From Bdellovibrionales bacterium (GTDB lineage: Bacteria > Bdellovibrionota > Bdellovibrionia > Bdellovibrionales > UBA1609): a stretch of DNA of 64,000 nt. Each line of letters starts with the position of its first letter. Within the stretch, counting starts at the first letter, position 1. Made by a program: the position numbers and the translations under genes. Where the stretch lies: the NCBI GenBank assembly GCA_965203095.1, contig OZ241877.1, positions 32,001 through 96,000 on the forward strand, given 5' to 3'. The notes below the pieces were generated by a model that worked only from the letters and a program-made list of their open reading frames with translations, did no database searches and had not been told where the DNA came from. Shown here one piece after another: positions 12,012 through 61,223 of the stretch.

Positions 12012-12515
12012 TTTGCCTAAAGACCACCCCATTTTCTTTCGTGGGAAAAATACCTTGGACCATCACCGGGGGGCTTTGGGCAAAATGAAGATTAAAGGAT
12101 ATTTTCTCCTGAGCTTGTTAAAAAACACCTCTTTAAGTTTCTTTTTCCAAAGGCCATTTCATTTCGGGACGGCAATACCTTGGACCCTCATGAAATGGCC
12201 TTTGGAAAAAAGAAGGAAAAAGCCATTATTCTTTAGTTTTTTTGCTCAAAGATCCCCCCATTATCTGCTCTATTTTGCGGGAAAATACCTTGGCCCCTCA
12301 TGGAACAAAGTCATTAAGAGGATGCTTTTTTAGATCGATTTATTGTCTGTGAAAAACTTCTGTCTTTTATCGCATAAGCAAAAGCCAGCGGTGAGGGTCC
12401 AAGGTATTGCCGTCCCGAACAAGCTGGACTTTTGCTTATGCGATCTATTAAATGTAGACTTTTTCACAGAGGATTTTTTAGCAATTAGTAGGCTGGCTTT
12501 TGGGCAAAAGTGATT
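12012..12515. repeat. Cluster of four family-A hairpin units plus a half-arm
   Basis: TACCTTGG(A/C)CC core on the + strand near 12051, 12176 and 12286, and GGGTCCAAGGTA near 12395; three units are enclosed by long inverted arms and the 12286 unit is decayed; the last unit has TCTGTGAAAAA...TTTTTCACAGA ends (12346..12470). Confidence 0.85.
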
Positions 12516-12563
12516 AAAATGTAGCTTTTCCTGCTTTTTTTAAAGAAAAAGCCCTTTATGGGC

Positions 12564-12591
12564 TAAAGTTTGGGATCAAACCAGCCGATAG
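12564..12591 (+). promoter_or_regulatory. Putative sigma28 (FliA)-type promoter
   Basis: TAAAGTTT-N12-GCCGATAG, 10 nt before the ATG at 12602. Confidence 0.65.
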
Positions 12592-12601
12592 TCTTAATAT
12601 A

Positions 12602-13948
12602 ATGAGAAAAAAGTTTTTTTTATGGACAAAATCCTTTTTTTTTAAAACTTTGCGGGCTGTGGCTGTTGGGGCTGTGGCTGTTGGGGCTGTGGATAATATA
12701 CCTATGCCAGCACCACCAAAAGCAATAGCAGTAGCAGAATCAACAGGGGCGACGGGGACATGTGATGAGATTCTTCCAGCTGAAGTGGAGGCGGCAAGCA
12801 AAGGTCTAATGGATATGGGGGCTATGGCTATGGTGGGGCAAACCGCCAACACTGCGGTATCCGCTACTGAAGATGGAGGAGGTTCTGCCAAATTGGCTCA
12901 CCAAGGCAGTATGGCTATCAATGGGACTATGTCGGCTTATGCCTTATCTGTTTATGACAGTTGCACTTCCGCTTTCACCGCTTGTGAAACAGCTTGTGCG
13001 GTGGGAGAAGAGAAAGACGCTGTTCTTAGTAATTGTCCTAAAGAGGGTGCAGAAATTTGTTCTAAATATGGACCTGGAGAGACTCCTCCTTCTGACCTTA
13101 GTGTTGATTGTTCAAAGGTAAAAGCAAATTGTGAAGACCATAAAACAAAGATTTTAGCTCAATGCACAAGTGCCGCTGGGGCTTGCGATCAGGCTTTAAT
13201 ACAAGCGGGTTTATCTCTTGCCAATGTGGGAATATCCCTTATGGCTTTAAGAGCACTGAGAGGAGATGATGATGGAGGAGATGAATGTGAAGAAGGCGAA
13301 GACTGTCCGGATGAGAATACAACTCCTCTTCCTGATTTTAGGTCTTCCAGCCTTCCAACAGCTACTACAAACTCTCCCAACACTTCACCGGGAGAAGATG
13401 AGAAAAAAACTAATCAAGAATTTACTCCACCGGAAAAACCAGAAGAGAAAAAAACCACTGTGGCGAAAAAGGAGAAAGGGGAAAAATACAAACCCACTAA
13501 AGAAGGGACAGGAAGTGACAACACAATGGGTTTGGCCTCTGCACTTGGTGGGCAAAAGTCCGCTACTCCCTCAAATTCTGCTGGGGGCTTAGGTTCCTCT
13601 GGTTTGGGCCGAGGGCTTAGTTCTGCCTCTAATAATGATGGCGAGCCTTTAATGGATGATGAAGATGATGAGGACTGGAGACGAAATAACCCAGGAATAA
13701 CAGGTGCTTTTTCCGGAGGTCTGACATCTCAGCCCGCCAATGTTAGAGGAGGGGCAGGGGGCTTAGGGGGGCCTTCTCAAAGAGGAAAGTCGGGCAAAAA
13801 AAATAAAAACAAAAAATGGGCCCAAGCCTCCAAAAAGAAAGGGGATATTTTTGCTAAAGCCGGAGCACATAGCAGTATTTTTGAAAAAATGAGCCAGATC
13901 ATTCAATCTTATTGTGGCAAAGAAAAGGGGAATTGTAGCCAAAAATAA
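12602..13948 (+). CDS. Exported Cys-rich hypothetical protein with central hydrophobic helix and low-complexity tail
   Basis: N-terminal hydrophobic AVAVG repeats, many Cys, TM-like AGLSLANVGISLMAL, Gly/Ser/Lys-rich linker, C-terminal SIFEKMS. Confidence 0.7.
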   Translation: MRKKFFLWTKSFFFKTLRAVAVGAVAVGAVDNIPMPAPPKAIAVAESTGATGTCDEILPAEVEAASKGLMDMGAMAMVGQTANTAVSATEDGGGSAKLAHQGSMAINGTMSAYALSVYDSCTSAFTACETACAVGEEKDAVLSNCPKEGAEICSKYGPGETPPSDLSVDCSKVKANCEDHKTKILAQCTSAAGACDQALIQAGLSLANVGISLMALRALRGDDDGGDECEEGEDCPDENTTPLPDFRSSSLPTATTNSPNTSPGEDEKKTNQEFTPPEKPEEKKTTVAKKEKGEKYKPTKEGTGSDNTMGLASALGGQKSATPSNSAGGLGSSGLGRGLSSASNNDGEPLMDDEDDEDWRRNNPGITGAFSGGLTSQPANVRGGAGGLGGPSQRGKSGKKNKNKKWAQASKKKGDIFAKAGAHSSIFEKMSQIIQSYCGKEKGNCSQK

Positions 13949-14004
13949 AAGGATATGCTTTTTTTGGAAAAAAGGCATTTTTAATTAAAAAAAAGGAGGA
14001 CAAT

Positions 14005-17296: not shown

Positions 17297-17488
17297 TAGT
17301 TGTCCGTGAAAAAGCCTCAGTAAGTCCTTCTCATCCCCTGCTTTTACAGGCTCAGGCTTTTCAATGACTTTTGCCTAAAGGCCGTCCGGTGATGGTCCAA
17401 GGTATTGCCGTCCCGAAATGGGACGGACCTTTAGGCAAAGAAACTGAAGAATCCCCTGTGAATTATAGAGGTTTTTCACGAGCGACTA
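17297..17488 (+). mobile_element. Full-length family-A MITE-like element (192 bp)
   Basis: Terminal inverted repeats TAGTTGTCCGTGAAAAA / TTTTTCACGAGCGACTA, central long hairpin with conserved loop; near-identical to 29852..30043. Confidence 0.85.
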
Positions 17489-19853: not shown

Positions 19854-19912
19854 TAATCGCCTGTGAAAAGCCTCTGCGATCTATCAAATATAGACTTTTT
19901 CACGGATGATTA
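19854..19912. mobile_element. Minimal (internally deleted) family-A element, 59 bp
   Basis: TAATCGCCTGTGAAAAG...CTTTTTCACGGATGATTA flanked by TA; right half matches 12440..12470. Confidence 0.7.
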
Positions 19913-21290: not shown

Positions 21291-21456
21291 AACCCCCCCC
21301 TTCCCAACGGAAAAAATAGATCGTCCCCTCTGAAAAACTTGCCTAAAAGCCCGCATGTGTCAAGCCTTAAAAAAATCTTTAACAGGTTTTGCGAAATGGC
21401 TCAAAAATGATTCTGTCAAAAAAATCATGAACAGGACAGGAATAACTGTTTATGTG

Positions 21457-21540
21457 CTTTTGCCCAAAGCCACAGCATGAGGGTCCAAGGTATTGCCGTC
21501 CCGAAATGCTGTGGCCTTTGAGCAAAGAAACTAAAGAACA
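21457..21540 (+). repeat. Family-A hairpin unit between divergent rsbW-like and STAS genes
   Basis: TTTGCCCAAAGCCACAGC-[31-nt core 21477..21507]-GCTGTGGCCTTTGAGCAAA. Confidence 0.85.
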
Positions 21541-29694: not shown

Positions 29695-29774
29695 AGTATA
29701 ACCGGAACAAAGAGCCTTCTTCAAGCTCTTTTATTTTTGTGGGACTCTATACTTTTTCCATAAATTTTCCTTAT
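29695..29774 (-). promoter_or_regulatory. Putative sigma70 promoter of pheT, -35 contributed by the repeat shared with the icd upstream region
   Basis: Minus strand TTGAAG-N18-TATACT-N6-ATG with no Shine-Dalgarno; 29721..29774 matches 17494..17545. Confidence 0.5.
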
Positions 29775-29851: not shown

Positions 29852-30043
29852 TAGTCGTCCGTGAAAAAGCCTCAGTAAGTCCCTCTCATCCCCTGCTTTT
29901 ACAGGCTCAGACTTTTCAATCACTTTTGCCTAAAGGCCGTCCCATGAGGGTCCAAGGTATTGCCGTCCCGAAATGGGACGGACCTTTAGGCAAAGAAACT
30001 GAAGAATCCCCTGTGAATTATAGAGCTTTTTCACGGGCGATTA
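29852..30043 (+). mobile_element. Full-length family-A element (192 bp)
   Basis: TAGTCGTCCGTGAAAAA...TTTTTCACGGGCGATTA; core ATGAGGGTCCAAGGTATTGCCGTCCCGAAAT at 29944..29974. Confidence 0.88.
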
Positions 30044-30078
30044 ATTTAGTCGTTCTAAAAAAACTATCCTCCTAAATT

Positions 30079-30232
30079 TAGTGACTCATGAAAAAGTATC
30101 CTCTCAACTTCTTTTTTCCAAAGGCCATTTCATTCATGAGGGTCCAAGGTATTGCCGTCCCGAAATGGGATGGCCTTTGGAAAAAGAAACTAAAGAATAA
30201 GGCTTTCCAGAAGGATTTTTCACAAAAGATTG
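30079..30232 (+). mobile_element. Family-A element variant
   Basis: Degenerate ends TAGTGACTCATGAAAAAG / TTTTTCAC; core at 30136..30166 on a CCAAAGGCCAT / ATGGCCTTTGG stem. Confidence 0.8.
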
Positions 30233-32627: not shown

Positions 32628-33110
32628 TTAATCCACCCAGTTAATCTTGTCTGTGTTCAATGCTCCGCTGTCCATAATCATGTCATAATGTTTTGAGTCT
32701 ATAAAAGCTCCTGCCAAGTCTGCCTTTGTCAAGTTTGCCCCTATCAATTTTGCCCCTGCCAAGTCTGCCATAAACAAGTCTGCCCCTATCAATTTTGCCC
32801 TATACAAGTTTGCCCATGTCAAGACTGCTCAAGTCAAGTCTGCCTTTATCAAGACTGCCCCTGTTAAGTCTGCCATAAACAAGTCTGCCCATCTCAATTT
32901 TGCCCTATACAAGTTTGCCCATGTCAAGACTGCCCCATACAAGTTGGCCTCTGTTAAGTCTGCCCATCTCAAGTCAGTTTTTTCCAGGTGTTTTTTTCCT
33001 TGTCTGATTTGTTCAATCAATTCTGCTTGTTTTGTGGGATCAACTGGCCCCGGATTTTCAGAAAAAGCCGGCAAGCTTATTAAAAGAATAAGGCTCAATA
33101 GTATTTTCAT
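32628..33110 (-). pseudogene. Exported pentapeptide-repeat protein interrupted by an in-frame TGA
   Basis: Signal peptide MKILLSL..., A(D/N)Lxx repeats; ...ADLT-TGA(32831..32829)-AVLTWANLYRA continues in frame. Confidence 0.8.
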
Positions 33111-33205: not shown

Positions 33206-33275
33206 AGCTGGTCTTTTGCTTATGCGATAACGGACAGAGCTTTTTCACGAGCGACTAAATCGCCTGTGACAAGCC
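33206..33275. repeat. Half family-A element plus the start of another end
   Basis: GCTGGTCTTTTGCTTATGCGATAA..GACAGAGCTTTTTCACGAGCGACTA resembles the reverse complement of 12346..12389; followed by AATCGCCTGTGA. Confidence 0.7.
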
Positions 33276-38933: not shown

Positions 38934-39017
38934 TAGTTGCCTGATAAAAGTCTACATTTAACAGATCGCATAAACAAAAATCCATCTTACCTGGCGGGAA
39001 AAATACCCATGAACCAT
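38934..39017. repeat. Decayed family-A half element
   Basis: TAGTTGCCTGATAAAAGTCTACATTTAACAGATCGCATAA resembles the reverse complement of 12435..12470; decayed core GCGGGAAAAATACC. Confidence 0.6.
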
Positions 39018-41212: not shown

Positions 41213-43732
41213 ATGCCCATAAAAAAAGAAGCTATAGCCAGAATAAAAATCAATAAACTGCTGGAAAAAGCAGGTTGGCGGTTTTTTGAAAGCCCTCAGG
41301 GCTTAGCCAATATTCAGTTAGAACCCAACATCAAAATTCGTCCCAAAGACATTTCAGCCATAGGCGACAACTTTGAAAAAACCAAAAGGGGCATGCTGGA
41401 CTACCTGCTTTTAGATGGCAAAGGCTTTCCCCTTGTCGTGTTGGAAGCCAAAAGGGAGGAAAAAGACCCCTTGGACGGCAAAGAGCAAGCCAGAAAATAT
41501 GCCTATAGCTTAAATGTCCGGTTTGTCATTTTATCTAACGGAAATTTACATTATTTTTGGGATCTGGAAATAGGCCATCCTGAAATTATTATAGACTTTC
41601 CTACCCAGGAATCCTTACAGCAAAGACTTCATTTTAAGCCCAACAAGCAAAAACTTTATAAAGAGCTTATAGATGAGGACTATATTGCCTCTTCACAAAA
41701 GCCAGAAATTTTAAGAGATCCGGATTGGGCGAAAAAAAAGCTGGCACTGGCAAGACAATACAATATCCCTATTTTGCGACCCTATCAGTTAAAAGCCATT
41801 AGGCTTTTACAAAAATCAGCTCAAGAGGGCAATAAGCGTTTTCTTTTTGAAATGGCTACAGGGACGGGTAAAACCCTGCTTTCCTCAGCTGTGATCAAGC
41901 TTTTTCTCAGGACGGGAAATGCAAAAAGAGTTTTATTTCTTGTAGATAGGCTGGAGCTTGAAGATCAAGCTTTTAAAAACTTCAAGAATTATCTCAAAAA
42001 TGACTATCAATCGGTTATTTATAAAGAGAGTAAGGAGGATTGGAGGAGAGCAGAGATAGTTATTTCTACTGTGCAAAGCTTAATGGCAGGAGATAAATAC
42101 ATTCAGCTTTTTTCCCCTACAGACTTTGATCTTTTAATTTCAGATGAAGCTCATCGCTCTATTGGGGGCAAAAGCCGAGCCATTTTTGAGTATTTTATTG
42201 GGTTCAAGATAGGTCTGACAGCCACACCAAAAGATTTTTTAAAGAATATAAATGCTCTAAAACTATCCGAAAAAGATCAAAGAAGTTGGGAGCGAAGATT
42301 GCTTTTAGACACTTACACCACTTTTGGTTGTGAAAGTGGGGAGCCTACCTTTAAATACAGTTTAATAGACGGAGTTCGTGAAGGCTACTTGATTGATCCT
42401 CTCGTAGTAGACGCCCGGACAGATATTACAACGGAGCTTTTGTCAAAACAGGGCTACAGCCTAAAAATGGAAACTGAAGAGGGCTTAGAGGAAGAGCATA
42501 TTTTTTTTAAAAAAGATTTTGAAAGAAAATTCTTCTCTGAAAAAACAAATCTTATTTTTTGCAAGAGTTTTTTGGAAAATGCTCTAAAAGATCCTATCAC
42601 TAAGGAAATGGGAAAAAGTATTGTTTTTTGTGTAAGCCAAAAACATGCGAGAAAAATCACTCAAATTTTAAATCGGCTGGCTGATAAGATCTGGCCCGGC
42701 AAATACAATTCTGATTTTGCGATTCAAATTACTTCTAACATTGAGGGCACTCAGGGCTACACAGTTAATTTTGCCAACAACAAACTGAATGGCTATAGCC
42801 GATTTAAAGAGGGCTATAAAACCAGCAAAACCAGAGTTTGCGTCACAGTTCGTATGATGACTACAGGTTATGATTGCGAGGATATTTTAAACCTTTGTTT
42901 AATGAGGCCGGTATTCTCCCCCACAGACTTTGTTCAGATGAAAGGCCGGGGAACCAGAAAATTTACATTCCAATACAAAAACGAAAACGGAAGAGAACAC
43001 AAAATAGAAAAAGAAAAGTTTAAACTTTTTGATTTTTTTGCAGTCTATGAGTTTTTTGAAAAAGAGTTCAATTATGACATAGCCTTAAAACTGCCTTTAG
43101 GCCAATCAAAGATTTTAGATAGTGAGAGAGTTGCTCCTATCATGGATAAAGCGGAAATATATGACCCCGATAGTTTAAAAAGCCTCTCTGAAACAAAAGT
43201 TGGAATTGAGGGCATGAGAGTTGATCGGGAACTATGGGGCCAGGCACAAGATAAAATCTCAAAAGACCAGGATTTGGCAGAAGCCGTTCAAAAAGAAATG
43301 TGGCAAAAAGCAGAAAGCATTGTAAGAGAGAGATATGAAGACAAACCAGAGCTTTATTTGAATTTGCAAAAAATCCGTAAAGCAGAAAATTTAGACCGGC
43401 GGATCACTTGGAAAGAGGTCTTACTGAGGGTATTTGGTATTATTGACTCCTTCCCTAACAGAGAGGAGCTGATTGAGGAGGAATGTAATAAATTCATAGC
43501 CATTTTTAAACCAGAAAATAAATATATCCATCACATTAAAAATTATATTTGGTCTTACATTACAGACGCAAAGTTTAGAGAAATTATTGACACCAAGGCT
43601 TATGCTCTATTAAATGTCAACCCAGGTTTTGATTTTCAGGATTTTAAGGCTTTAAACGGCAAAACAGGCTTACAAACAAAAATTCCTGAATATATAAAAA
43701 ACTATGTTAACTTAAACCTCTTTATGGATTAA
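41213..43732 (+). CDS. hsdR: Type I restriction enzyme R subunit (EcoEI-like)
   Basis: DYLL...VVLEAK nuclease, LRPYQ, MATGTGKT, DEAH, GLTATP, MTTGYD, QMKGRGTR. Confidence 0.92.
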   Translation: MPIKKEAIARIKINKLLEKAGWRFFESPQGLANIQLEPNIKIRPKDISAIGDNFEKTKRGMLDYLLLDGKGFPLVVLEAKREEKDPLDGKEQARKYAYSLNVRFVILSNGNLHYFWDLEIGHPEIIIDFPTQESLQQRLHFKPNKQKLYKELIDEDYIASSQKPEILRDPDWAKKKLALARQYNIPILRPYQLKAIRLLQKSAQEGNKRFLFEMATGTGKTLLSSAVIKLFLRTGNAKRVLFLVDRLELEDQAFKNFKNYLKNDYQSVIYKESKEDWRRAEIVISTVQSLMAGDKYIQLFSPTDFDLLISDEAHRSIGGKSRAIFEYFIGFKIGLTATPKDFLKNINALKLSEKDQRSWERRLLLDTYTTFGCESGEPTFKYSLIDGVREGYLIDPLVVDARTDITTELLSKQGYSLKMETEEGLEEEHIFFKKDFERKFFSEKTNLIFCKSFLENALKDPITKEMGKSIVFCVSQKHARKITQILNRLADKIWPGKYNSDFAIQITSNIEGTQGYTVNFANNKLNGYSRFKEGYKTSKTRVCVTVRMMTTGYDCEDILNLCLMRPVFSPTDFVQMKGRGTRKFTFQYKNENGREHKIEKEKFKLFDFFAVYEFFEKEFNYDIALKLPLGQSKILDSERVAPIMDKAEIYDPDSLKSLSETKVGIEGMRVDRELWGQAQDKISKDQDLAEAVQKEMWQKAESIVRERYEDKPELYLNLQKIRKAENLDRRITWKEVLLRVFGIIDSFPNREELIEEECNKFIAIFKPENKYIHHIKNYIWSYITDAKFREIIDTKAYALLNVNPGFDFQDFKALNGKTGLQTKIPEYIKNYVNLNLFMD

Positions 43733-43757
43733 ACCACACAAACAAAAAGGAAAAATA

Positions 43758-46436
43758 ATGTTAGATCAAGAAACCAAAAGAAAAATTGATTCAGTTAGGG
43801 ACATTCTTGTTGGAAAAATCCCTGACCCCACCCAGCAAGTAGATCAAATTACAACAGCTCTTATCTATAAGTTTATGGATGATATGGATCAGATTTCCAT
43901 TGGAGCAGGGGGATCCGCTCAGTTTTTTAAAGGCCGGTTAAAGAATTTCAGCTGGCCTAAAATTATGGATCGAAAACTCTCTGGTCAAGAGCGATTAGAC
44001 CTCTACATTCAAGCCTTAAACCAACTCCCACAAAGCCAAAACTTGCCCCCTCTTTTTCGTGAGATTTTTAAAAACGCACTCCTGCCTTATAGAGATGCTG
44101 AAACTTTAAATCTTTTTTTAAAAGAGATAAACAACTTCTCTTACGATCACAGTGAAAATTTAGGCAATGCCTTTGAATATTTGCTTTCTATATTAAGCAG
44201 TCAAGGCGATGCGGGGCAATTTAGGACTCCCAGACATATTATTGATTTTATGGTAGAAATTGTAGATCCTAAAAAAAGAGAGAACATTTTAGATCCTGCT
44301 TGTGGGACTGCCGGTTTTTTAATTTCTTCCTACAAACATATTATAAAAAACAATTCAAAAAATTACAATCCGGAAAAAGACAAGCATAGCTTTGGAAACC
44401 TGTCTTTTAAAGATCAAAATAAATCTAAAAACAAAATTGAGAATGGCACTGATAGCTCTATGGAAAATGCCTCTGCTGTGCAAATCCAAAGCAATGGGCA
44501 ATACAAAGGCGAAAAACTAAAAGCTGGGGAGGAAAAGCTTTTACAAAAAAACATTGTGGGCTACGATATATCTCCTAAAATGGTCAAGCTTTCCCTTGTG
44601 AATATGTATTTGCATCGGTTTAATGATCCCAAAATTTATGAGTATGATAGTTTAACCAGTGAAGATCGATGGGGAGATGAGTTTGATGTGATTTTAGCTA
44701 ATCCTCCCTTTATGAGCCCGAAAGGGGGGATCCGCCCTCATAAAAAATTTTCGGTCCAGGCCAATCGCTCAGAGGTTCTTTTTGTAGATTACATAGCAGA
44801 GCATTTAAGGCTTAATGGCCGGGCCGGCATTATTGTCCCGGAAGGAATCATCTTTAAAGGTGATAAAGCTTACAAGGAACTTAGGAAAATCCTGTTGGAA
44901 GATCGATTCCTTTGGGCGGTTTTGAGTCTTCCTTCTAAAATTTTTGAGCCTTACTCTGGAGTGAAAACCAGCATTTTGTTTTTAGACCGGAAAAGAGCCA
45001 AAATAACAGATGAGATTTTGTTTATAAATATTCAAAACGATGGTTTTGATTTGGGAGCCACTCGCCGAAAGATTGATGAAAATGACTTGCCAAAGGCTTT
45101 TCAAATTTTAAAAGCTTGGAGGGAAGGGAAAAAACAAACCAGCCCCTTAGCTCATTGGATTCATAGAGAAAAAATCAGAACCTCTGGCGATTATAATTTT
45201 ACCGCCAATCGATATAAAGAAATCCAGCAAAAACCTACAAAATACCCTCTCATAGAACTTGGAGAGGTTTTAGACTATGAACAACCAACAAAATATGTTG
45301 TTCAATCCACCCATTATAAAGATGAATATGAAACCCCTGTTTTGACTGCTGGAAAAAGCTTTTTATTGGGTCGGACAAATGAAAAACAAGGAATCTTTCC
45401 AAAAGAAAAGCTACCAGTAATAATTTTTGATGATTTCACAACAGCAACAAAGTTTGTGGATTTTCCTTTTAAAGTCAAATCCTCAGCAATGAAAATTTTG
45501 CATTTATCCAGCATTTGTCATTCTCATAATATCCCTTATTCTCACAATCTGCATCCTTCCCACAATCTGCATCCTTCCCACAAAGACCGTCATTCCCGCG
45601 AAAGCGGGAATCCAGAAAATATAATAAAAAAAGATAAAATCACTTATATAAAATTTATTTTCTATATGATGCAAAATATTAAATTTAACGCTAAAACACA
45701 TAAACGGTATTGGATTTCTCAATACTCAAAAATCAAAATCCCACTCCCTCCCCTGGAAGCCCAAAAGGAAATCGTAACGGAGATTGAAGGCTATCAAAAA
45801 ATCATTAAAGGAGCAAAACAGGTTGTCGCAAATTGGAAACCCACCATTCCAATCGATCCCTCTTGGCCTCTTGTAGAGCTTGGGGAGATTGCTGAAATAA
45901 ACTCTGGCAATTCAGCTCCTCAAGATAAAAGCCTTTTTAAAAATGGAAAATATCCTTTTTGCAGAACTGGCGATGTTGGTAAAATTCACATATCAGATAA
46001 TTTTAAAGAAATTAATGATCGCTTAAATGATAAGGGAATTAAGGGTCTAAGACTATTTAAAAAAGACACAATTTTGTTTCCAAAAAGTGGAGCTTCAACT
46101 TTTTTAAATCATCGTGTTTTATTGAAAGTAGATAGTTATGTTTCAAGCCACTTAGCAACCATTTATGCAAACAAAGAAAAGATGATTTCTAAATTCTTAT
46201 TTACTTTGCTGTGTTTTGTTGATGCAAAGAGCTTAACAAATGAGCAAAACTATCCTTCTTTGAGACTGTCAGAAATAAAGAGCATAAAAATTCCCCTGCC
46301 TCCTCTTAAAACTCAGAAAGCGATTGTGGAAAAGATTGAAGAAGAGCAAGCTCATGTTGAATCTTGTAAAAAAATGATTAAACTCTATGAGCAAAAAATC
46401 CAACAAAAAATCTCTGAAGTATTTAAGGAAAAATAA
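43758..46436 (+). CDS. Fused type I methyltransferase-specificity subunit (HsdM-HsdS, two TRDs)
   Basis: GQFRTPRHI, DPACGTAGFL, NPPF, then two TRD/conserved-region units ending IPLPPLEAQ and IPLPPLKTQ. Confidence 0.92.
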   Translation: MLDQETKRKIDSVRDILVGKIPDPTQQVDQITTALIYKFMDDMDQISIGAGGSAQFFKGRLKNFSWPKIMDRKLSGQERLDLYIQALNQLPQSQNLPPLFREIFKNALLPYRDAETLNLFLKEINNFSYDHSENLGNAFEYLLSILSSQGDAGQFRTPRHIIDFMVEIVDPKKRENILDPACGTAGFLISSYKHIIKNNSKNYNPEKDKHSFGNLSFKDQNKSKNKIENGTDSSMENASAVQIQSNGQYKGEKLKAGEEKLLQKNIVGYDISPKMVKLSLVNMYLHRFNDPKIYEYDSLTSEDRWGDEFDVILANPPFMSPKGGIRPHKKFSVQANRSEVLFVDYIAEHLRLNGRAGIIVPEGIIFKGDKAYKELRKILLEDRFLWAVLSLPSKIFEPYSGVKTSILFLDRKRAKITDEILFINIQNDGFDLGATRRKIDENDLPKAFQILKAWREGKKQTSPLAHWIHREKIRTSGDYNFTANRYKEIQQKPTKYPLIELGEVLDYEQPTKYVVQSTHYKDEYETPVLTAGKSFLLGRTNEKQGIFPKEKLPVIIFDDFTTATKFVDFPFKVKSSAMKILHLSSICHSHNIPYSHNLHPSHNLHPSHKDRHSRESGNPENIIKKDKITYIKFIFYMMQNIKFNAKTHKRYWISQYSKIKIPLPPLEAQKEIVTEIEGYQKIIKGAKQVVANWKPTIPIDPSWPLVELGEIAEINSGNSAPQDKSLFKNGKYPFCRTGDVGKIHISDNFKEINDRLNDKGIKGLRLFKKDTILFPKSGASTFLNHRVLLKVDSYVSSHLATIYANKEKMISKFLFTLLCFVDAKSLTNEQNYPSLRLSEIKSIKIPLPPLKTQKAIVEKIEEEQAHVESCKKMIKLYEQKIQQKISEVFKEK
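45517..45615 (+). repeat. In-frame 18-bp tandem repeats plus dRS3-like palindrome inside hsdMS
   Basis: CACAATCTGCATCCTTCC twice with degenerate flanking units, then GTCATTCCCGCGAAAGCGGGAATCCAG (ATTCCC-N8-GGGAAT) encoding RHSRESGNP. Confidence 0.85.
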
Positions 46437-46446
46437 AGGTGTCAAT

Positions 46447-48813
46447 ATGAAAATAGGCAGAATTAAAGAAATAAAAGACATAGGAGCTTTTGCAAACTTT
46501 AAAAACGGAGGTTCTCTCAGCTTTGAAAAACTAACATTTATTTATGGCTTGAACACTTATGGAAAAACCACTTTAGCAGATATTTTTCAATCTTTAAAAC
46601 AAAAGGATCCGCAATTAATTAAAAATCGAAAAACCATTCCGTATCAATTGGAATCACAAAAAGTCATTTTAACAGAGAAAGATCAAAAAGAAAATGATAT
46701 TATATTTCAAGACAATCAGTGGCAGGAAAATAGCTTAAGCTCTCATCTTGAAGTATTTGGTTCTGACTTTGTTTATAAAAATCTTTTTACTGGACTTAAT
46801 ATTGAAAGGAAGAATAAAAAAAATTTTACCCAGTTTATCCTTGGAGAGCAGGGAGTCAAAATCACTAAAGAAATTGAGAGTAAAAAACAAGAATCTCAAG
46901 AAAAGAAAAAAAATCTAAAGACAACAACTCCTCTTTTTGTAAAAGGCAAAGAGGATGATGTTATTGAGCAATTTTTAAAGTTTTCTATAGAAGGATTAAA
47001 CCTGCAAAAAGTCAGAGAAGAGCTAATTCAAAAAATCTCAGAATGGGAAAAAGAGAAAAAGCGAATTGAAAAACCACAAAAAATTTTAGGAATGGAAGAA
47101 CCAGATCAATATACAACTCCCAAAATAAATATTATTGGTTTAATGGACTCCATAAATGAGATTTTTCAAAAAGATTACTCTGAAATAAAAGATGAAATTT
47201 TAAAAAAACTAAACCAACACCTTGAAGAGCATTTTCCCAAACAGAATGGAGCTGAAAACTGGATAAAAGAAGGCTTAGATTATTGCAAGAATAAAACCAA
47301 CTGTCCCTTTTGTGGCCAGCCATTAACCACAGCTCAAGATTTGATCGAAAATTACCATTCTTATTTTGATCAAGCTTATACAAGCTTTATTCAAGAGATC
47401 GAAAATGCTTTATCAAAAAACTGCAATAAGATTGAAAATTCTTATTTTTCAGAAAAATCAAAAATCCAAACAGTTTTAACAAAAGCCAATAAATTTAAAG
47501 TTAAAGATCTTATAACTGATAATGAATTTCAACAGCAACTTGATGAATTAGAGGAACTGATAAATAAATTAGATGAGGATAGATTAAATGATGAAAAAAA
47601 CTCAGTTTTTGAAAAAATAAAAACAAATTGTGATATTAAAAATAAGAAACCTTATAAAAAAATAGAAGCTCTTGATTGTTCTGAATTTAAAAAGCATGTG
47701 AAACTTTATATGCAATCCCTTTTTGAATCTGAACAGAAGATCAAAAAAATCAAAATCCATATAGATAAATTTAAAGAGCTATATCGTGACACTCATAAGA
47801 TAAAAGAGAAAATCAATCATCTGGAAAAAGAAGTTAAAGAGTTAGAATATAAAAAAGCTCGCATAGAGCAAAATGAAGATTGTCTAAAATATATTGATCT
47901 TGAAGATAAAATTGAAAAACTTGATCAAAATGTTAATGAGCTGAGAAAAAAATTAGAAAAAGAACAGTCAGAATATCTTGAAAAATATTTTTTTAAGATA
48001 AATGAATTATTTAAAAATTTTGGAAGTAAAGATTTTACTCTTGAAAAAAAGATAGATAAAAGAGGAAATATGACAGTCTGTTCCCTAAAAGTAAAATTTC
48101 GTAAAGAGGAAATACAAAATGAACAATTAAAAAACACTTTTAGTGATTCTGATAGAAGAGCTTTAGCTCTATCTGTATTTTTATCAAAAATAAAATTAAA
48201 AGAAGATTTTGAAAAACAAAAATTAACTGTAATTTTAGACGATCCTATTACGAGTTTTGACGATATTCGGATCACCAGTAGCATTAACCTTTTTAGAAAC
48301 ATATTAGGCAAAATAGATCAGATGATCATATTGACACATTACCCACAATTTATAAAAAGGTTTTGTGAAATCACTCATTCTGAATCCATAAAAATTCTAC
48401 AAATAAAACAAGATACTGTCACCAGTTTTTTAGAGCAAACAAATAAAGACTTTTTCCTTCAAAATGAATATCAGAAAGCTTTTGAAAAAATTTATGGTTT
48501 TATCAATAAAAACCATTCAAAGGATATAAAAACCAACTTACGGCCTTTTTTTGAGAATCATTTAAAGATGATTTTTGCTAAAAAAATAAAAGATGAAAAT
48601 ATAAATTGCAATGATTTGAAATCAATGATTGATGGAATTTTTAAAGACAATAAAGAGGTAAAAAACAAAATGAATGGGTTTAGGGAAACATTAAACCCAG
48701 CCTCTCATATTATAACTTCTGATAATGAAGAGAATATTCGAAACTTTGCCAGAGAGCTAATGGATCATTTATACTCTATAAAATTATATGATAATTTAAG
48801 CGGGAACTTATGA
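46447..48813 (+). CDS. RloC-like ABC/SMC-type ATPase with zinc hook and C-terminal HEPN-like nuclease
   Basis: Walker A YGLNTYGKTT, CPFC hook between coiled coils, FSDSDRRAL signature, LDDPITSFD, ILTH, terminal RETLNPASH; visibly AT-rich. Confidence 0.8.
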   Translation: MKIGRIKEIKDIGAFANFKNGGSLSFEKLTFIYGLNTYGKTTLADIFQSLKQKDPQLIKNRKTIPYQLESQKVILTEKDQKENDIIFQDNQWQENSLSSHLEVFGSDFVYKNLFTGLNIERKNKKNFTQFILGEQGVKITKEIESKKQESQEKKKNLKTTTPLFVKGKEDDVIEQFLKFSIEGLNLQKVREELIQKISEWEKEKKRIEKPQKILGMEEPDQYTTPKINIIGLMDSINEIFQKDYSEIKDEILKKLNQHLEEHFPKQNGAENWIKEGLDYCKNKTNCPFCGQPLTTAQDLIENYHSYFDQAYTSFIQEIENALSKNCNKIENSYFSEKSKIQTVLTKANKFKVKDLITDNEFQQQLDELEELINKLDEDRLNDEKNSVFEKIKTNCDIKNKKPYKKIEALDCSEFKKHVKLYMQSLFESEQKIKKIKIHIDKFKELYRDTHKIKEKINHLEKEVKELEYKKARIEQNEDCLKYIDLEDKIEKLDQNVNELRKKLEKEQSEYLEKYFFKINELFKNFGSKDFTLEKKIDKRGNMTVCSLKVKFRKEEIQNEQLKNTFSDSDRRALALSVFLSKIKLKEDFEKQKLTVILDDPITSFDDIRITSSINLFRNILGKIDQMIILTHYPQFIKRFCEITHSESIKILQIKQDTVTSFLEQTNKDFFLQNEYQKAFEKIYGFINKNHSKDIKTNLRPFFENHLKMIFAKKIKDENINCNDLKSMIDGIFKDNKEVKNKMNGFRETLNPASHIITSDNEENIRNFARELMDHLYSIKLYDNLSGNL

Positions 48814-48884
48814 AATATACCAAAATAGAATGGATAAATATGCATGAAATTCTGTGATAGTTCTACCCAATAAAAGGAGGGTTT

Positions 48885-50072
48885 ATGAATAGGCCAAAAT
48901 GTTTTTATTATATCAGTCATAAGGACAATTTAAAATCTATCTTAAAAAGAGGTATATTGTCCCGATCACAAATAAAAGCTGGTTTGTTTGCTAAAATTGG
49001 ATTAGGCCAAAAAACAAAATCCATCCATGATGAAAGCATTATTCAAAGTAGAAAAAGCAGGAAATTCAAAAACCGTTCCCTTTGGGATTATGCCAATGTG
49101 TATTTTCAAGCACGAAACCCTATGCTCTACCGGGTGATTAAAGAGTTTGGGAAGGAGGAGATTGTTGTTTTGCAAATCAACTCAGATATTTTAGACATAC
49201 CCGGCTCTGGAATTACAGACGGCAATTCAGCCTCTCCAAATGCTATTATTTTTGAAGACATAAATGAAGGCTTAAGTGCTTTGGACAAGACCTTATTTGA
49301 AAAAGGCCATTGGATTAACATTGAGAACGGAAAAAGAAAAATAATGGCAGAAGCCTTAATCCCCGATCAAATTCCAACAGAAAAAATAACAAGCATATAC
49401 ACAAACTCTCAACAAACAAGTCAAGAAATAAAAGAAGAGCTGAAAATATTGCTAAATAACATACCTGTTATTTTTCATCCTTGGATATTTTTTCATCCTA
49501 AATTTCAAAAAAATATTCCAAAAAAAATCTCACTTGTAAAAGGGGATATGTTTTTTTCAAAAATGAAAACTTTTACAATTAGTGTAAATACTGTCGGGGT
49601 TATGGGCAAGGGCCTGGCCTCAAGGGCTAAGTATCAATTCCCCGATGTTTATGTTCTTTATCAAGATATTTGCCGGCAAAGGAGGTTAAAAATGGGTGTT
49701 CCTTATCTTTATAAAAGAGAAGAAAATTATGAAAAAACTCTTATAGAGGACACAAACTCCACTGTGACTGAAAACGGGAATCGATGGTTTTTGCTCTTCC
49801 CCACAAAAAATCATTGGAGGGAAAAATCCCCACTGGAAGGGATCGAAAAGGGCCTGCAACACTTGGTAGCCCATTATAAAAACCAAGAAATAGAATCCAT
49901 AGCTCTCCCCGCCTTAGGCTGTGGCTTAGGTGGTTTGGATTGGAAGGATGTCGGCCCTTTGATGTGCCGATACTTAGATAAAATGGATATTCCGAGTTCG
50001 GTTTATTTGCCTCTTGAAGGGCAGATTCCTGAAAAACAGTTGTCAGCTGAGTTTTTATTAAACTACAAATAA
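48885..50072 (+). CDS. Single-chain fusion of DarT ssDNA ADP-ribosyltransferase and DarG-type macrodomain
   Basis: DarT motifs YYISH..NL.SIL..GILS, YANVYF.ARNPMLY, TDGN, AEALIP; macrodomain GDMF, VNTVGVMGKGLA, FPTKNHWR, SIALPALGCGLGGLDW. Confidence 0.88.
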   Translation: MNRPKCFYYISHKDNLKSILKRGILSRSQIKAGLFAKIGLGQKTKSIHDESIIQSRKSRKFKNRSLWDYANVYFQARNPMLYRVIKEFGKEEIVVLQINSDILDIPGSGITDGNSASPNAIIFEDINEGLSALDKTLFEKGHWINIENGKRKIMAEALIPDQIPTEKITSIYTNSQQTSQEIKEELKILLNNIPVIFHPWIFFHPKFQKNIPKKISLVKGDMFFSKMKTFTISVNTVGVMGKGLASRAKYQFPDVYVLYQDICRQRRLKMGVPYLYKREENYEKTLIEDTNSTVTENGNRWFLLFPTKNHWREKSPLEGIEKGLQHLVAHYKNQEIESIALPALGCGLGGLDWKDVGPLMCRYLDKMDIPSSVYLPLEGQIPEKQLSAEFLLNYK

Positions 50073-50083
50073 AAAAACAAAAT

Positions 50084-50159
50084 TATACCGATTTTGTTTG
50101 AAAATTCTTGTTTTTTCTATCCCCTATTTTGAACGGAATTTTAACTGTGATTGCTGTAT
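50084..50159 (+). mobile_element. Family-B element (copy 3), right flank of the defence cassette
   Basis: TATACCGATTTTGTTTGAAAATTCTTG...GAACGGAA; right end degenerate. Confidence 0.75.
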
Positions 50160-50544
50160 GTTAGATCAATAGACTAAAGGCTGGGAAAAGCCCAAAAAAG
50201 AATTTTTATAGAGGAATATTTTTAAAAAATTTAAAGCCATCAGTCAAAATAATTGATACAGCACTGCACAATAGGGGATAAGGGGTTTTTACACTATGCG
50301 ACAATTCCCGTATTAAAGAAGGAAGCTCTAACAACATAATTGGGGGTAGGGAGCTGTTGGGCTTTAGTGCAGAGAAGATATAAAAAAGCAGAAAAAAGGC
50401 TTTGCTAAAATAGGGAAAGGGATTTATATTCAGATTAGAGTAAGGGAATTAGATGGGGATAAAGAGAGGAAATGAAACATAAAAAATTATTAGGAAATAG
50501 TGTTAGTAAAAGATATTCGGTCACCATGAACCCACACTAATAAA

Positions 50545-51363
50545 ATGAAAAGGCTTAATTCTACCGCTAAAAAAGTTTTTTCTATAAATAAAAAAAATCA
50601 ATTTTTATTAAAAACAATAGACTTTAAACCTTTGCTTAAAAGTATAAAGCCCAATACTACAGATTTGATTTTGACTGATCCCCCTTATGCTATCTCAAAA
50701 AAAACAGGATTTAAACAAATGGGAAAAAACTCTATTGAAAGGTTTGCTGTCTCAATGGATTTTGGAAAATGGGATAACCAAGAGATAAACCTAAAAGAAT
50801 TTGCTCGTTTAAGCTACAAAGCCTTAAGGCCTGGCGGGACTATCATTTGCTTTTATGACTTGTGGAAAATCACAAAAGTTCAAACAGCCTTTATCTCGGC
50901 GGGATTTGGAATGATAAGGCTAATTATATGGGAAAAAACAAATCCTGTCCCTCTCAATTCGCATAGTATTTATTTAAGCAACTCAAGGGAAGTGGCTGTT
51001 TTAGGGATAAAAGGGGGCAAGCCTACTTTTAATAGTAAATACGATAATGGGATTTATGAATTTCCTATACATAGAGAAAAAAGAATACATCCCACACAAA
51101 AACCCTTAAAGCTCATGTCCGCCTTAATCAAAAAACATTCCAAAGTTAATGATTTAGTAGTGGATCCTTTCTTAGGTTCCGGTTCCACGGCACTTGCCGC
51201 ATTAAAATTAAAAAGAAAATTTATCGGAGGCGATAAAGATAGGAGGTATGTTGAAAAAGCAAGAAAAAGAATTGAAAAAGCTAACAAAGAAAGCTCTGTT
51301 TTTAGAATTAGCAAAGCCCGACAAAACGGGTCTGTCAAAAAAAGTGTATATAAAAGAGTTTAA
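50545..51363 (+). CDS. Beta-class N4-C/N6-A DNA methyltransferase
   Basis: LILTDPPY precedes HPTQKP and DPFLGSGST. Confidence 0.92.
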   Translation: MKRLNSTAKKVFSINKKNQFLLKTIDFKPLLKSIKPNTTDLILTDPPYAISKKTGFKQMGKNSIERFAVSMDFGKWDNQEINLKEFARLSYKALRPGGTIICFYDLWKITKVQTAFISAGFGMIRLIIWEKTNPVPLNSHSIYLSNSREVAVLGIKGGKPTFNSKYDNGIYEFPIHREKRIHPTQKPLKLMSALIKKHSKVNDLVVDPFLGSGSTALAALKLKRKFIGGDKDRRYVEKARKRIEKANKESSVFRISKARQNGSVKKSVYKRV

Positions 51364-58028: not shown

Positions 58029-58138
58029 AATTTACCCCTTGCCTATACTTTTGCGGAAGGCTGATTTTAAGATCTCCGCAAATAAAACCTGCCTCTGTAT
58101 AATGTCTGTTGGCTCACCTGTCCAGTTTTTTTGTTTTT

Positions 58139-58211: not shown

Positions 58212-58239
58212 AATTACCCTTGAAACTGAAGTTCGCAGG

Positions 58240-60042
58240 TTAATTTTCAGATTTCATAAAGGCCATAAAAGCTTTTTGCGGGACCTCCACTCGCCCAATG
58301 GACTTCATTTTTCTTTTACCGGCTTTTTGTTTTTCCAGCAGTTTCTTTTTCCGAGTCACATCTCCGCCATAGAGCTTGGCCGTCACATCTTTTCGGTAAG
58401 CTCCTAAAGTTTCTCTGGCAATAATTTTTGATCCCACAGCGGTCTGGATAGCCACCTGAAATTGCTGACGAGGTATCAACTCCTTTAGTCGCTTAACCAT
58501 GATCCGCCCTCGCCCTTGTGTTTGTGAACGGTGGATAATTACAGATAAGCTATCCACGGCCTCCCCATTCAACAAAACATCCATTTTTACTAAATCTCCC
58601 GGCTCATAACCTGCTAACTCATAATCCATGGAGGCATAACCCTTAGACAAAGATTTTAAACGATCATGAAAATCCAAAATTATTTCACTTAAAGGGATTT
58701 TATATTTCAATATTACTCTGTGACTGGATATGTATTCCAAACCCTCTTGTTGCCCTCTCTTGCTTTCGCAAAGTTTAAGAAGATGACCAATGCAAAATGT
58801 TGGGGAATGAATTTGCAGGATAGCCACAGGCTCCTCTATACAGGCTATTTTTGTAGGATCAGGAAGTAGAGCTGGATTTTCCACATTTAAAATTTCAGCC
58901 TTTTTTTTAAGATGAACCTTGTAAATCACACTGGGTGCTGTGGCAATGAGATCTAACTCAAACTCTCTTTCCAACCTCTCTCGCACGATTTCCTGATGGA
59001 GCCATCCCAAAAAACCACAACGAAAACCAAAGCCTAAAGCCCTTGAGGACTCCATCTCATAACTCAAACTGGAGTCATTAAGAGAAAGTTTTTCCAAAGC
59101 TTTTTTTAGATGTTCAAAACCATCCGTATGAATGGGAAAAATCCCGGAATAAACCATAGGCTGAATCTTTTTAAAACCCTTTAAAGGAGGGACATCCTTG
59201 GAGTTTTTATGGACAATGCTATCCCCCACTCTCATATCTGCAATTTTTTTAATGCCTGTAATTACAAAACCGACCTCTCCGGCCCTCAACTCAGCCAACT
59301 CGGAGACAAAAGGGGTGAACACCCCCAACTTTAAAACCTCACACTCCCTGTTAGAACCTTTTAAACAGATGGAATCCCCTTTTTTGATAATCCCCTGTTT
59401 CACACAGCAAAGGGCCACAACCCCCTGGTAACTATCAAACCAAGAATCAAAAACCAAAGCTTGTAAAGGCTGGAAAGAATCTCCTGATGGGGGAGGAATT
59501 TTTTGTGCCACTGCCTCTAAAATCTCTTGAATGCCTTTTTTCTCCCTGGCACTGGCTAAAAGAATACTTTCTTCTTTTAAACCTATAAGATCTGTGATCT
59601 GCCTTTTAACTTCATCCACTCTTTGAGTGGGCAAATCAATTTTATTGATTACAGGGATAAGCTCTAAATTGTTTTCCAAAGCTAAAGCAGAATGAGCTAA
59701 AGTTTGTGCTTCCACACCTTGACTGGCATCCACTACCAAAAGGGCCCCCTCACAAGCAGAAAGAGAGCGGGAAACCTCGTAAGAAAAATCCACATGTCCC
59801 GGAGTGTCAATCAGATGAAATTGATAGATCTGGCCGTCTTTACTTTGAAAATTCAGCCTCACAGTTTGAGCTTTAATGGTGATCCCCCGTTCCCTTTCTA
59901 AATCCATCTGATCCAAAAAGCGATCCTTCCTACTTCGCTCGTCTAAGGCATGGGTCAGCTCCAAAAAACAGTCGGCTAAGCTGGACTTACCATGGTCAAT
60001 ATGAGCTATGATGGAAAAATTCCTAATTCGATCTAAAGGCAT
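58240..60042 (-). CDS. lepA: Elongation factor 4
   Basis: IRNFSIIAHIDHGKS, ERERGITIK, DTPGHVDFSYEVSRS, NKID, YGGDVTRKKKLLEKQK. Confidence 0.97.
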   Translation of the reverse strand: MPLDRIRNFSIIAHIDHGKSSLADCFLELTHALDERSRKDRFLDQMDLERERGITIKAQTVRLNFQSKDGQIYQFHLIDTPGHVDFSYEVSRSLSACEGALLVVDASQGVEAQTLAHSALALENNLELIPVINKIDLPTQRVDEVKRQITDLIGLKEESILLASAREKKGIQEILEAVAQKIPPPSGDSFQPLQALVFDSWFDSYQGVVALCCVKQGIIKKGDSICLKGSNRECEVLKLGVFTPFVSELAELRAGEVGFVITGIKKIADMRVGDSIVHKNSKDVPPLKGFKKIQPMVYSGIFPIHTDGFEHLKKALEKLSLNDSSLSYEMESSRALGFGFRCGFLGWLHQEIVRERLEREFELDLIATAPSVIYKVHLKKKAEILNVENPALLPDPTKIACIEEPVAILQIHSPTFCIGHLLKLCESKRGQQEGLEYISSHRVILKYKIPLSEIILDFHDRLKSLSKGYASMDYELAGYEPGDLVKMDVLLNGEAVDSLSVIIHRSQTQGRGRIMVKRLKELIPRQQFQVAIQTAVGSKIIARETLGAYRKDVTAKLYGGDVTRKKKLLEKQKAGKRKMKSIGRVEVPQKAFMAFMKSEN

Positions 60043-60100
60043 AAGTTTTTATAGAAAGTTGAGACAAATACATTAAAAATCCAGGGCAATAAAAGATCAG

Positions 60101-60289
60101 TTAATCCTTTTCATCCTCTAAAGGCAAGGATATTTGGCCAGAAAGTTTTTTATCATATTTTTTTAAAATCAAATCAATACCTTGGCGAATCAACTCAGAG
60201 ATGGGAATCTTTAAGCGATCATTTAGCTCTCTAAGTTGCCTTTGTTGCTTTTCTGTAATATAAATTGTAGTGGCTTGTTTTTTTGCCAT
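60101..60289 (-). CDS. Ribbon-helix-helix DNA-binding protein
   Basis: TTIYITEKQ beta-ribbon, IPISELIRQGIDL helix. Confidence 0.8.
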   Translation of the reverse strand: MAKKQATTIYITEKQQRQLRELNDRLKIPISELIRQGIDLILKKYDKKLSGQISLPLEDEKD

Positions 60290-60306
60290 GTTTTATAATG
60301 TTTTAA

Positions 60307-60383
60307 TGGCACGTCCGAGAGGATTTGAACCCCTAACCCCTGGATCCGAAGTCCAGTGCTCTATCCAGTTGAGCTACGGACGC
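60307..60383 (-). tRNA. tRNA-Arg(UCG)
   Basis: Minus strand GCGTCCGTAGCTCAACTGGATAGAGCA-CTGGA-CTTCGGA-TCCAG-GGGTTAGGGGTTCAAATCCTCTCGGACGTGCCA; cloverleaf with encoded CCA. Confidence 0.95.
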
Positions 60384-60547
60384 TGATTAAATTTTATATA
60401 CCTCTGAGATGGTTTAAACACTTCCTATCTTATTTAAGCTATTTTGTTGATATATGTCAAGATTTCCTGGCCAGCTTAAAAGAAGAAAACTTTTCATTAA
60501 ACACTTTTTTATAGACAAAAAGCCTTTTTTGTGTTATTTTTATAAAC

Positions 60548-60985
60548 ATGAAGTGGGCCTTTTATTTCTTTCTTATTTCTTTTTTACTGCCGGCCTGCTC
60601 CCATCTGAACACCACATGCAAAGCTATCAACTGGTATGAGTTGGGCCGACAAGATAGTGCGAAAGGTTTAAAAAAAAGCTCTATCTTTGAAAAGAGAAGG
60701 AAGGTTTGCCCTATTTCCCCTAACTCTATTTATGCTAAAGCTTATGACAATGGGTTTTCAGCAGGTTTAAGGGATTATTGTAGTTTTAAAACTGGCTATA
60801 TTTACAGCCTCTCTCAGATGAAAAGGGAGCTTGTTTCCGCCTGCCCGGAAAACTTAAAAATAGAGTTTATCAAAGGCTATGAGATAGGTTCTTACATGAA
60901 AGAGATCCAATCCCTCCAAAATGAAATTCAGGACAAAATTCAACGGGTGGCTAAAAAATTGGTTTCTATGGCAAACAAAAAATAG
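60548..60985 (+). CDS. DUF2799-like lipoprotein
   Basis: LLPAC lipobox, C...NWYELG.QD..KG, Y..GF..GLRDYC, GY.IG. Confidence 0.75.
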   Translation: MKWAFYFFLISFLLPACSHLNTTCKAINWYELGRQDSAKGLKKSSIFEKRRKVCPISPNSIYAKAYDNGFSAGLRDYCSFKTGYIYSLSQMKRELVSACPENLKIEFIKGYEIGSYMKEIQSLQNEIQDKIQRVAKKLVSMANKK

Positions 60986-61032
60986 TTCAGGTTCAAAAAA
61001 TAGGTTCAGGTTGATCTTAAGGGACGACTAAT

Positions 61033-61223
61033 TAGTCGCCTGTGAAAAACCTCTATAATTCACAGGGGATTCTTCAGTTTCTTTGCCCAAAAGCCACAGC
61101 ATTTCGGGACGGCAATACCTTGGACCCTCATGCCGTGGCCTTTGGGCAAAAGTCATTGAAAAGCCTGAGCCTGTAAAAGCAGGGGATGAGAGGGACTTAC
61201 TGAGGTTTTTTCACGGGGGACTA
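61033..61223 (-). mobile_element. Full-length family-A element, reverse orientation
   Basis: TAGTCGCCTGTGAAAAA...TTTTTTCACGGGGGACTA; core reverse complement at 61101..61131. Confidence 0.88.

Follow-up and report, generated by a model that had tools for sequence, protein, structure and literature searches.

A folded core on exchangeable stems within IS5-type miniature elements of a Bdellovibrionales genome, and its probable kinship with TwoAYGGAY repeats

Introduction

How does a dispersed bacterial repeat come to keep 31 nucleotides nearly constant while the stems beneath them change in sequence from copy to copy and still pair? The question is raised by a 64,000-nt stretch of Bdellovibrionales DNA (the window), which corresponds to C1:32001-96000 of its source genome, G000 (1.80 Mb, 38% G+C, 90% complete), whose rpsD has its closest relatives among Bdellovibrionales, at best at 79-86%. 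An original prediction, made from the letters of the window, held that each copy presents its constant core as a loop for a protein to bind, either as a mobile structured RNA or as the substrate of a recombinase or transposase. We describe here what appears to be a selfish element in two layers, an IS5 MITE (a miniature transposable element with inverted repeats) outside and a reduced hairpin akin to the TwoAYGGAY repeat inside, a reading that we favor with some reserve.

Results

The core is a folded domain on stems that change in pairs

Five exact and two variant copies of the core lie in the window at the predicted positions (Table 1), and none of 100 shuffled controls gave a match; the decayed copies could also be placed, two of them at 10565-10631 and near 38990. 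Genome-wide, G000 has 88 core sites at up to 7 mismatches, 32 of them exact. An iterated profile counts 136 copies and an anchored scan 123, the latter divided into 91 with the main core and 32 with a second, more decayed core type. Nearly all classified copies (127 of 134) are intergenic, and they cluster head to tail (23 of 24 pairs spaced within 600 bp).

The invariant 31 nt do not form an open loop. They are paired as a folded domain in a rod of 70-75 nt consisting, in order, of a long stem of free sequence, then an RUGA/GAA internal loop, the GGG/CCC helix, a U.U mismatch, a C-G pair, a CAA bulge (which may resemble a C-loop), a G-C pair and a free tip. The proposed sequence-presenting loop is not supported either, the core being paired and the tip its most variable part (TATT, TATTG, GAA, GTA, AAA, GTAA or a 30-nt hairpin), with the tip pair inverted from G-C to C-G in G026, G367 and G370. 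A further suggestion, that CCGTCCC pairs alternatively with a following GGGA(C/T)GG, is available to some arms only and is not the predicted minimum-energy fold. Small palindromes, one of the GTAG type, have struck the tip in several loci (L356:2840-2877, L357, L493, L353) and left the lower motif undisturbed.

Rfam, searched at gathering and E-value level with ribozyme and riboswitch models included, returned one tRNA in the window and nothing credible on the element. Likenesses to hammerhead, hepatitis delta virus (HDV), SECIS, k-turn and attC structures were dropped, the element having none of their core parts, and a peptide reading frame in the core is ruled out by a core 1 nt shorter in relatives.

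That the stems differ yet remain complementary is borne out, and the stems quoted in the original prediction are in the sequence. Across 130 distinct stems from the three main genomes, an arm pairs with its own partner at 11.7 of 13 positions and with foreign arms at 7.6, and about ten unrelated arm pairs per genome carry the same core. Among 69 distinct rows, in an alignment that was fitted to the model and whose related rows are not independent, 94% of cells are paired and 16 of 19 pairs show change on both sides; none of 500 shuffles reached this pairing statistic, and slid controls gave 37-52%. The inner 3-bp helix also varies in step, G366 having GGG/CCC 32 times, GTG/CAC 12, GAG/CTC 7, AGG/CCT 7 and one unpaired form, with GTG/CAC in G026 and GAG/CTC in G370. 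The U.U, C-G and CAA bulge are nearly fixed across copies in the genus that we call g18.

The fold is strand-specific and probably under selection

On the GAGGG strand, counted over the inner 15 columns, 130 distinct inner stems hold 80 G.T against 16 A.C mismatches, or 46 against 14 once contexts are collapsed (p ~4e-5, an optimistic value). Bulges fall 41 times in the 3' arm and twice in the other; such bulges, and the G.T pairs noted earlier in the 61101 copy, are present in the sequence. Spacers and ends show no such asymmetry in their substitutions (C>T 23, G>A 24, A>G 12, T>C 18), and a mutation bias acting on the element throughout therefore does not account for the G.T excess. Spacers pair as shuffled ones do (0.41 vs 0.42; 0.51 vs 0.49), the arms at 0.77-0.95, and in types A and C the hairpin has diverged less than its flanks. 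The G.T excess, the symmetric spacers and the paired changes in the 3-bp helix, seen in several genomes, uphold the predicted selected structure, and we consider it probable that selection maintains a strand-specific folded single strand.

Selection is not the only process that keeps the arms matched. Between nearest stems we counted 118 double changes (G000 40, G366 37, G371 17, G384 24) and 89 single ones (39, 18, 10 and 22, respectively). Transversions make up 47 of the 118 double changes, and since a transversion cannot pass through a wobble pair we read the double changes as arm-to-arm template switching, a correction of inverted repeats in bacteria supported by PMC5941160; the arms would thus be kept matched partly in this way, on top of selection. 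The original prediction had named hairpin conversion as something that could undo its case, and this applies in part, in that arm-to-arm copying explains much of the stem covariation better than selection alone. Arms and spacers are also mosaic among copies, pointing to exchange through the core. Two other sources of the stems or their bias were ruled out, namely target DNA, given that G384 stems follow one family pattern, and errors of fold-back synthesis on the 3' arm, given that G.T arises equally on both arms (18/19).

The carrier is an IS5-family MITE

The predicted terminal inverted repeats are real, and their sequence recurs in G000 at 283 end-repeat-like sites, against 64 in a reversed-genome control. 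The predicted length of 191-192 bp is too long, since the terminal TA belongs to a TANNTA target duplication, and type A units measure 187-188 bp. Nor is there one element size: inward pairs of end repeats cluster at 133, 153 and 187-188 bp, and of the 91 main-core copies 35 have both ends, 19 have one and 37 have no recognizable end repeat. The MITE units, 133-188 bp long, are without coding capacity. An exact 6-bp duplication, mostly TANNTA, flanks 18 of the 35 two-ended copies (permuted mean 4.6, maximum 12 in 10,000 permutations) and 38 of 68 copies in G366.

The same IS5-type end is present in at least 125 stretches across many phyla. A transposase gene bounded by the same terminal repeats, for which the original prediction had called, exists outside G000: a shared 18-mer bounds elements of 1.4-1.5 kb, 3 of 3 of which, when tested, had open reading frames (ORFs) that pass NF033578, the model for IS5, the autonomous elements L162 and L180 have exact TANNTA duplications (TACGTA, TATTTA), and the same or near-identical ends bound NF033578 transposase genes elsewhere, G367 and G371 included. 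The ends being IS5-family and the duplication a 6-bp TANNTA, the carrier of the hairpin is an IS5-family MITE, an assignment of which we are highly confident. Transposition of IS5 elements is of the cut-and-paste kind, with double-stranded DNA as the form that moves. Two protein queries and two profiles found no cognate IS5-family transposase in the 90% complete G000; the enzyme is intact in G371 and G367 and fragmentary in G366. Its absence from the G000 results lowers the expectation of present activity, not the filing as an IS5 MITE.

G000 has two other sets of transposase-like genes, neither bounded by MITE ends. Six identical 338-aa genes (C1 684572, 1265861, 1284234, 1647314, 1697700 and 1717492) are presumably IS630-like, and four of 592-596 aa (C1 175352, 971215, 1227679 and 1351045), which match DDE_Tnp_1, we take to be IS1634-like.

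The hairpin is a passenger of the IS5 ends

Twenty IS5 3' ends were aligned, after removal of one spurious row and with some rows from the same genome, and 18 of them are without the hairpin and have their stop codon at most 64 nt from the end, on which basis we regard the hairpin as a passenger. The hairpin-less ends include L349/L352 in G367 and L350 in G371. L355 (G367) and the remnant L353 (G366) do have the hairpin, in sense orientation, and in both its left arm takes in the stop and the codons just before it. MITEs with these ends and no hairpin occur in G005, of the same genus, and hairpin-less end pairs occur in G000, some with exact duplications. Conversely, copies in G361, G372, G026 and G370 are mostly without IS5 ends, and insertions break into the core of the L353 remnant and of several G367 copies. 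The proposal that the hairpin is the transposase substrate is not supported, the ends being those of the IS5 family and most IS5s and several MITEs with these ends lacking the hairpin. IS5 transposition does not require stem pairing. The association may have begun when an IS5 captured an adjacent MITE, or the reverse.

MITE-like units with the same IS5 ends around other types of hairpin repeat were seen in unrelated taxa (L163, L175, L185, L245, L265, L269), and these ends may therefore capture hairpin repeats generally. A further pair of IS5-type ends in G000 (C1:226061-226252), with the duplication TATTTA/TATATA, lies around the single tRNA-Asn gene of the genome and DNA upstream of it.

Distribution suggests horizontal gain

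Of 384 genomes of the order searched with a 17-letter core pattern, only three have it in large numbers (G000 117, G366 138, G371 28), with 0-3 in the others. A covariance model (R1) built on 24 copies matched 8 of 109 family genomes, these being G000 and 7 of the 15 genomes of genus g18, in which the hairpin sits on new stems. The model found nothing in the 9 other members of G000's own genus, nothing in a further 150 genomes from the phylum sample, and nothing at loci with IS5 ends in other phyla. The exact core had no match in the contig collection searched, and allowing 3 mismatches gave 0 of 60 relatives, because the relatives' core is one letter shorter. Among the genomes searched from that genus only G000 has the hairpin, which may point to its horizontal acquisition from a g18-like donor.

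Ten matches to a fixed-gap core pattern had no flanking stems and were dismissed as chance, as were, among the gapped-pattern matches listed, 11 outside Bdellovibrionales, 2 metagenomic and 2 viral ones. Read depth over the core was about 100-fold in four contig-type runs and has no bearing on expression. In G372, five hairpin copies with identical scores lie in a 1.3-kb tandem region (C5:105159-106501).

A probable reduced form of a TwoAYGGAY-like repeat

Weak model matches in G026 and G372 turned out to be longer forms that have an extra branch at the CAA position, an AYGGA-like loop on both tips and an unchanged base, TGA-GGG-Y-T ... YRA-G ... C-G-T-CCC-GA, as in the compact form. In G262 the base differs from that of G000 by one letter. 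Two AYGGA loops on a three-way junction were found in G026, G372, G384, G262, G048 and others and not in G000; their stems are near-perfect, 26-49 bp long, and vary in pairs. One such locus, L516, aligned over the full TwoAYGGAY model RF01731 at 35.5 bits, and a sequence model made from 13 two-loop forms matched 18 of 151 genomes of the order, G000 not among them. Like TwoAYGGAY, the window element is a dispersed, multicopy structured repeat with a long, poorly conserved basal stem and a tandem GA, corresponding to the UGA/GAA tandem of the published seed as given in PMC2864571 and PMC4333381. The window form departs from it in lacking both the AYGGA loop and the three-way junction, in being housed in IS5 MITEs and in running head to tail, whereas 68% of doublets in Pseudomonas are reported as divergent (10.64898/2026.09.22.753630).

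The window element is thus not a member of RF01731, where it has no score. The Rfam search that the original prediction proposed came out empty on the element itself and close to the mark on its longer relatives, which reach 42.3 bits against a gathering cut-off of 43. Comparison of the folds nonetheless makes it probable that the window element is a reduced form of a TwoAYGGAY-like repeat. Searches of the open-access literature brought up nothing on the compact form, on IS5 MITEs as carriers of such repeats, or on TwoAYGGAY-like repeats in Bdellovibrionales. As a separate observation, the RNase P RNA gene of G026 has a two-loop form some 100 bp upstream of it (L535:1700-2031).

Features of the window

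Table 1. Copies, derivatives and fragments of the element in the window.
Feature	Coordinates	Strand	Core	Remarks
Decayed hairpin with one intact end repeat	10534..10631	-		End repeat 10534-10548
Second-type core hairpin, decayed	12012..12085	-
Hairpin without recognizable end repeats	12133..12212	-	12161-12191, exact
Second-type core, strongly decayed	12241..12306	-
Type C MITE, 133 bp	12342..12474	+	12391-12421, 3 mismatches	2 mismatches per end; duplication gone
Type A MITE, 188 bp	17299..17486	+	17389-17419, 2 mismatches	Hairpin and spacers between IS5-type end repeats; flanked by an exact TATTTA duplication
End-repeat pair, 55 bp, no hairpin	19856..19910			Exact TATATA duplication; appears to derive from type C by deletion
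Hairpin without recognizable end repeats	21455..21530	+	21477-21507, exact
Type A MITE, 188 bp	29854..30041	+	29944-29974, exact	Duplication TAATTA/TAATTT
Older tandem copy	30049..30230	+	30136-30166, exact	Ends decayed (4 and 3 mismatches)
Fragment: end repeat and one type C arm	33213..33255	+
Fragment: type C arm, decayed end repeat, part of second-type core	38935..39015	-
MITE, 187 bp	61035..61221	-	61101-61131, exact	Type A spacers, different arm pair; exact TAATTA duplication

Two tandem genes with an Hjc-like nuclease domain, 96% identical, adjoin the decayed copies (window 10654-11848); they belong to a 12-member family in G000 that is not enriched near the element. A restriction-modification-like region (41213-51363) contains a ResIII/helicase gene, a methylase and one ORF combining DarT and Macro domains (48885-50072). 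A second dispersed repeat family, of 40-77 bp, occurs at 29774, 41022, 50083 and 58137, one copy directly adjoining a MITE, and about 20 tandem copies of a 15-bp unit (32692-32991) lie upstream of a YhgA-like (Rpn) gene. Elsewhere in G000, six near-identical, evenly spaced short ORFs on the second contig (17 kb; C2 6137-14166) suggest a tandem repeat.

Discussion

The two-layer reading may be set out as follows. In the outer layer, which is well supported, an IS5 transposase acting in trans would move the unit by its 15-bp ends into TANNTA sites and duplicate 6 bp. The inner layer, by comparison with the longer forms, would be a three-way-junction repeat that lost its first hairpin, the CAA marking the junction, and whose second hairpin is without its AYGGA loop. 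The GAGGG strand would fold when single-stranded, with an advantage for copies that preserve the fold, most likely at copying, through a factor that reads the junction. Template switching between arms would turn single changes into paired ones, and homologous exchange through the core would swap arms and spacers.

Several observations and features of sampling weigh against this reading or its parts. Copies were recruited by core similarity, which inflates conservation, and the G366 set covers about 95 of some 140 copies and includes 39 regions picked for their variants, which inflates variant counts. Type B cores are as diverged as their spacers (0.036 vs 0.039/0.022). G000 has amplified an unpaired T.C variant in 10-12 copies, its second core type breaks the inner helix, a hybrid with mismatched arms at C1:1597788 bears an exact duplication, and the G370 copies are without the tandem GA. 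As to ancestry, window copies do not match RF01731 at all, and the six of 109 family genomes that score there (27.9-42.3 bits) stay below the cut-off. As to a mobilizing partner, clustering of 748 neighboring ORFs revealed no mobilizing gene that recurs beside copies, and neither G000 nor G366 has a Y1 transposase (Y1_Tnp).

A host-level RNA element, whose transcribed copies bind a host protein or set transcript stability as is considered for NEMIS, ERIC, bcr1 or TwoAYGGAY as a CsrA sponge, would suit the hairpin's place on the transposase sense strand at the stop codon in G367 and G366, the CsrA-type loops of the parent form and the CsrA gene found in 5 of 5 genomes tested. It would also suit an RNA fold that prefers the GAGGG strand in 125 of 130 stems (115 of 130 with DNA energies) and core conservation that holds in copies without end repeats (0.95 vs 0.74 mismatches). 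Against it, copies between co-directional genes show no orientation bias (same/opposite 24/26 in G000, 7/7 in G366, 4/12 in G371), 60 of 127 G000 copies lie in divergent gaps where 31-37% would be expected, the 17299 copy has no promoter-like site inside, and the compact form has lost the AYGGA loops and is missing the CsrA motif. CsrA binding by TwoAYGGAY itself is, in PMC4333381, only predicted. Tips in G026, G370 and G367 moreover include GCGNAGC/GCGNNAGC, a type described in PMC13037366 as far more stable in DNA than in RNA. On balance we think a host RNA function unlikely.

If instead nothing read the fold, the element would be a neutral palindrome, its arms homogenized by template switching and its core by gene conversion. 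Double changes that match or exceed single ones, with their many transversions, the mosaic arms and spacers and the amplification of broken variants in G000 would follow directly. What this leaves unexplained is the paired change in a 3-bp helix flanked by mismatches (three genomes), a U.U and a CAA that stay fixed, bulges that favor the 3' arm, a G.T bias confined to stems, and spacers that were not homogenized, so that we hold a purely neutral origin to be improbable. Least probable, in our judgment, is a subterminal function for the hairpin in this IS5 lineage, in which excision or control of the transposase would need it or strongly profit from it and the MITEs would have inherited it. Its place at the 3' end of IS5 in two genomes would agree, as would the spacing of 55-57 nt between core and right end, shared by types B and C of G000 and 59 of 68 G366 copies although their sequences differ. 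The hairpin-less majority of IS5 ends (those of G367 and G371 included), the cores interrupted by insertions, the hairpin-less pairs with exact duplications and the copies without IS5 ends speak against it.

Within the two-layer reading, it is quite possible, though we stop short of calling it probable, that a factor reads the fold as single-stranded DNA during propagation; that it is read as RNA is a possibility we hold a little more loosely; and it is doubtful that nothing reads it and that conversion alone is at work. CGTC-type repeats, which PMC11893778 describes as sites of single-stranded DNA nucleases, flank many of the end-less copies and, with the missing orientation bias, the excess in divergent gaps and the tips of the GCGNAGC type, count for single-stranded DNA. 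For RNA count the place at the transposase stop, the parent's CsrA-type loops together with the CsrA gene, the stronger strand preference under RNA energies and the possible likeness of the CAA bulge to a C-loop. Matches to GIY-YIG are frames of 236-621 aa in G000, G366, G371 and G361 and one of 119 aa in G372. Neither paralogue enrichment in G000 nor the clustering of neighboring ORFs revealed a partner gene, and searches for DUF772 and Y1 gave no candidate. GC skew in G000 yielded no usable origin, and a 58/78 split of its copies is therefore no evidence on leading and lagging strands.

Among known systems, IS5-family (NF033578) MITEs agree with the outer layer in their 15-bp ends shared with autonomous IS5s, their TANNTA duplication, the lack of an ORF, the size range and tandem arrays sharing a target. 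Those described here differ in carrying a passenger under structural constraint, its stem and core holding while the spacers drift, and over a third of the copies (37/91) are end-less. bcr1, NEMIS/Correia and ERIC are likewise non-autonomous repeats folding into long stems, and compensatory changes are reported for bcr1, a structured MITE, in PMC3184786; here, unlike in those families, a single non-canonical core is found on several carriers and, in each genome, on some ten arm pairs unrelated to one another. The REP, CGTC and SRM repeats, read as single-stranded DNA by RAYT or Ssn nucleases, are similarly strand-specific, intergenic, high-copy and tolerant at the tip according to PMC3733652 and PMC11893778. 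The present element differs from them in having no GTAG or CGTC tag at its stem ends, in its length of 70-75 rather than 20-50 nt, in the missing Y1 transposase in G000 and G366 and in the missing partner gene beside the copies.

For the discovery of RNA motifs these findings advise caution, as about half of the stem changes are double, many of them transversions, and arm-to-arm copying can produce strong covariation. Should the junction be what is selected, the element would also provide a 70-nt substrate with natural compensatory variants that suits pull-down and probing. Variation in TwoAYGGAY copy number has been taken to suggest expansion in the manner of a mobile element, the link between mobility and regulation being left unresolved in that study (10.64898/2026.09.22.753630). 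The genomes considered here offer a natural deletion series, from both-loop forms to the loop-less compact form, with one documented vehicle, the IS5 MITEs and their 6-bp duplications. A speculative proposal, which we put forward as unlikely yet worth stating, is that the junction (3-bp helix, Y.U, C-G, YRA-G...C-G and a long self-correcting stem) is the cis signal of a copying system that spreads TwoAYGGAY-like repeats through a folded single strand. If this were true, the CsrA-type loops would be dispensable cargo and the 70-nt form a minimal substrate with which to find the enzyme; and if it is the junction that is selected, the core function of the family would not be CsrA sponging.

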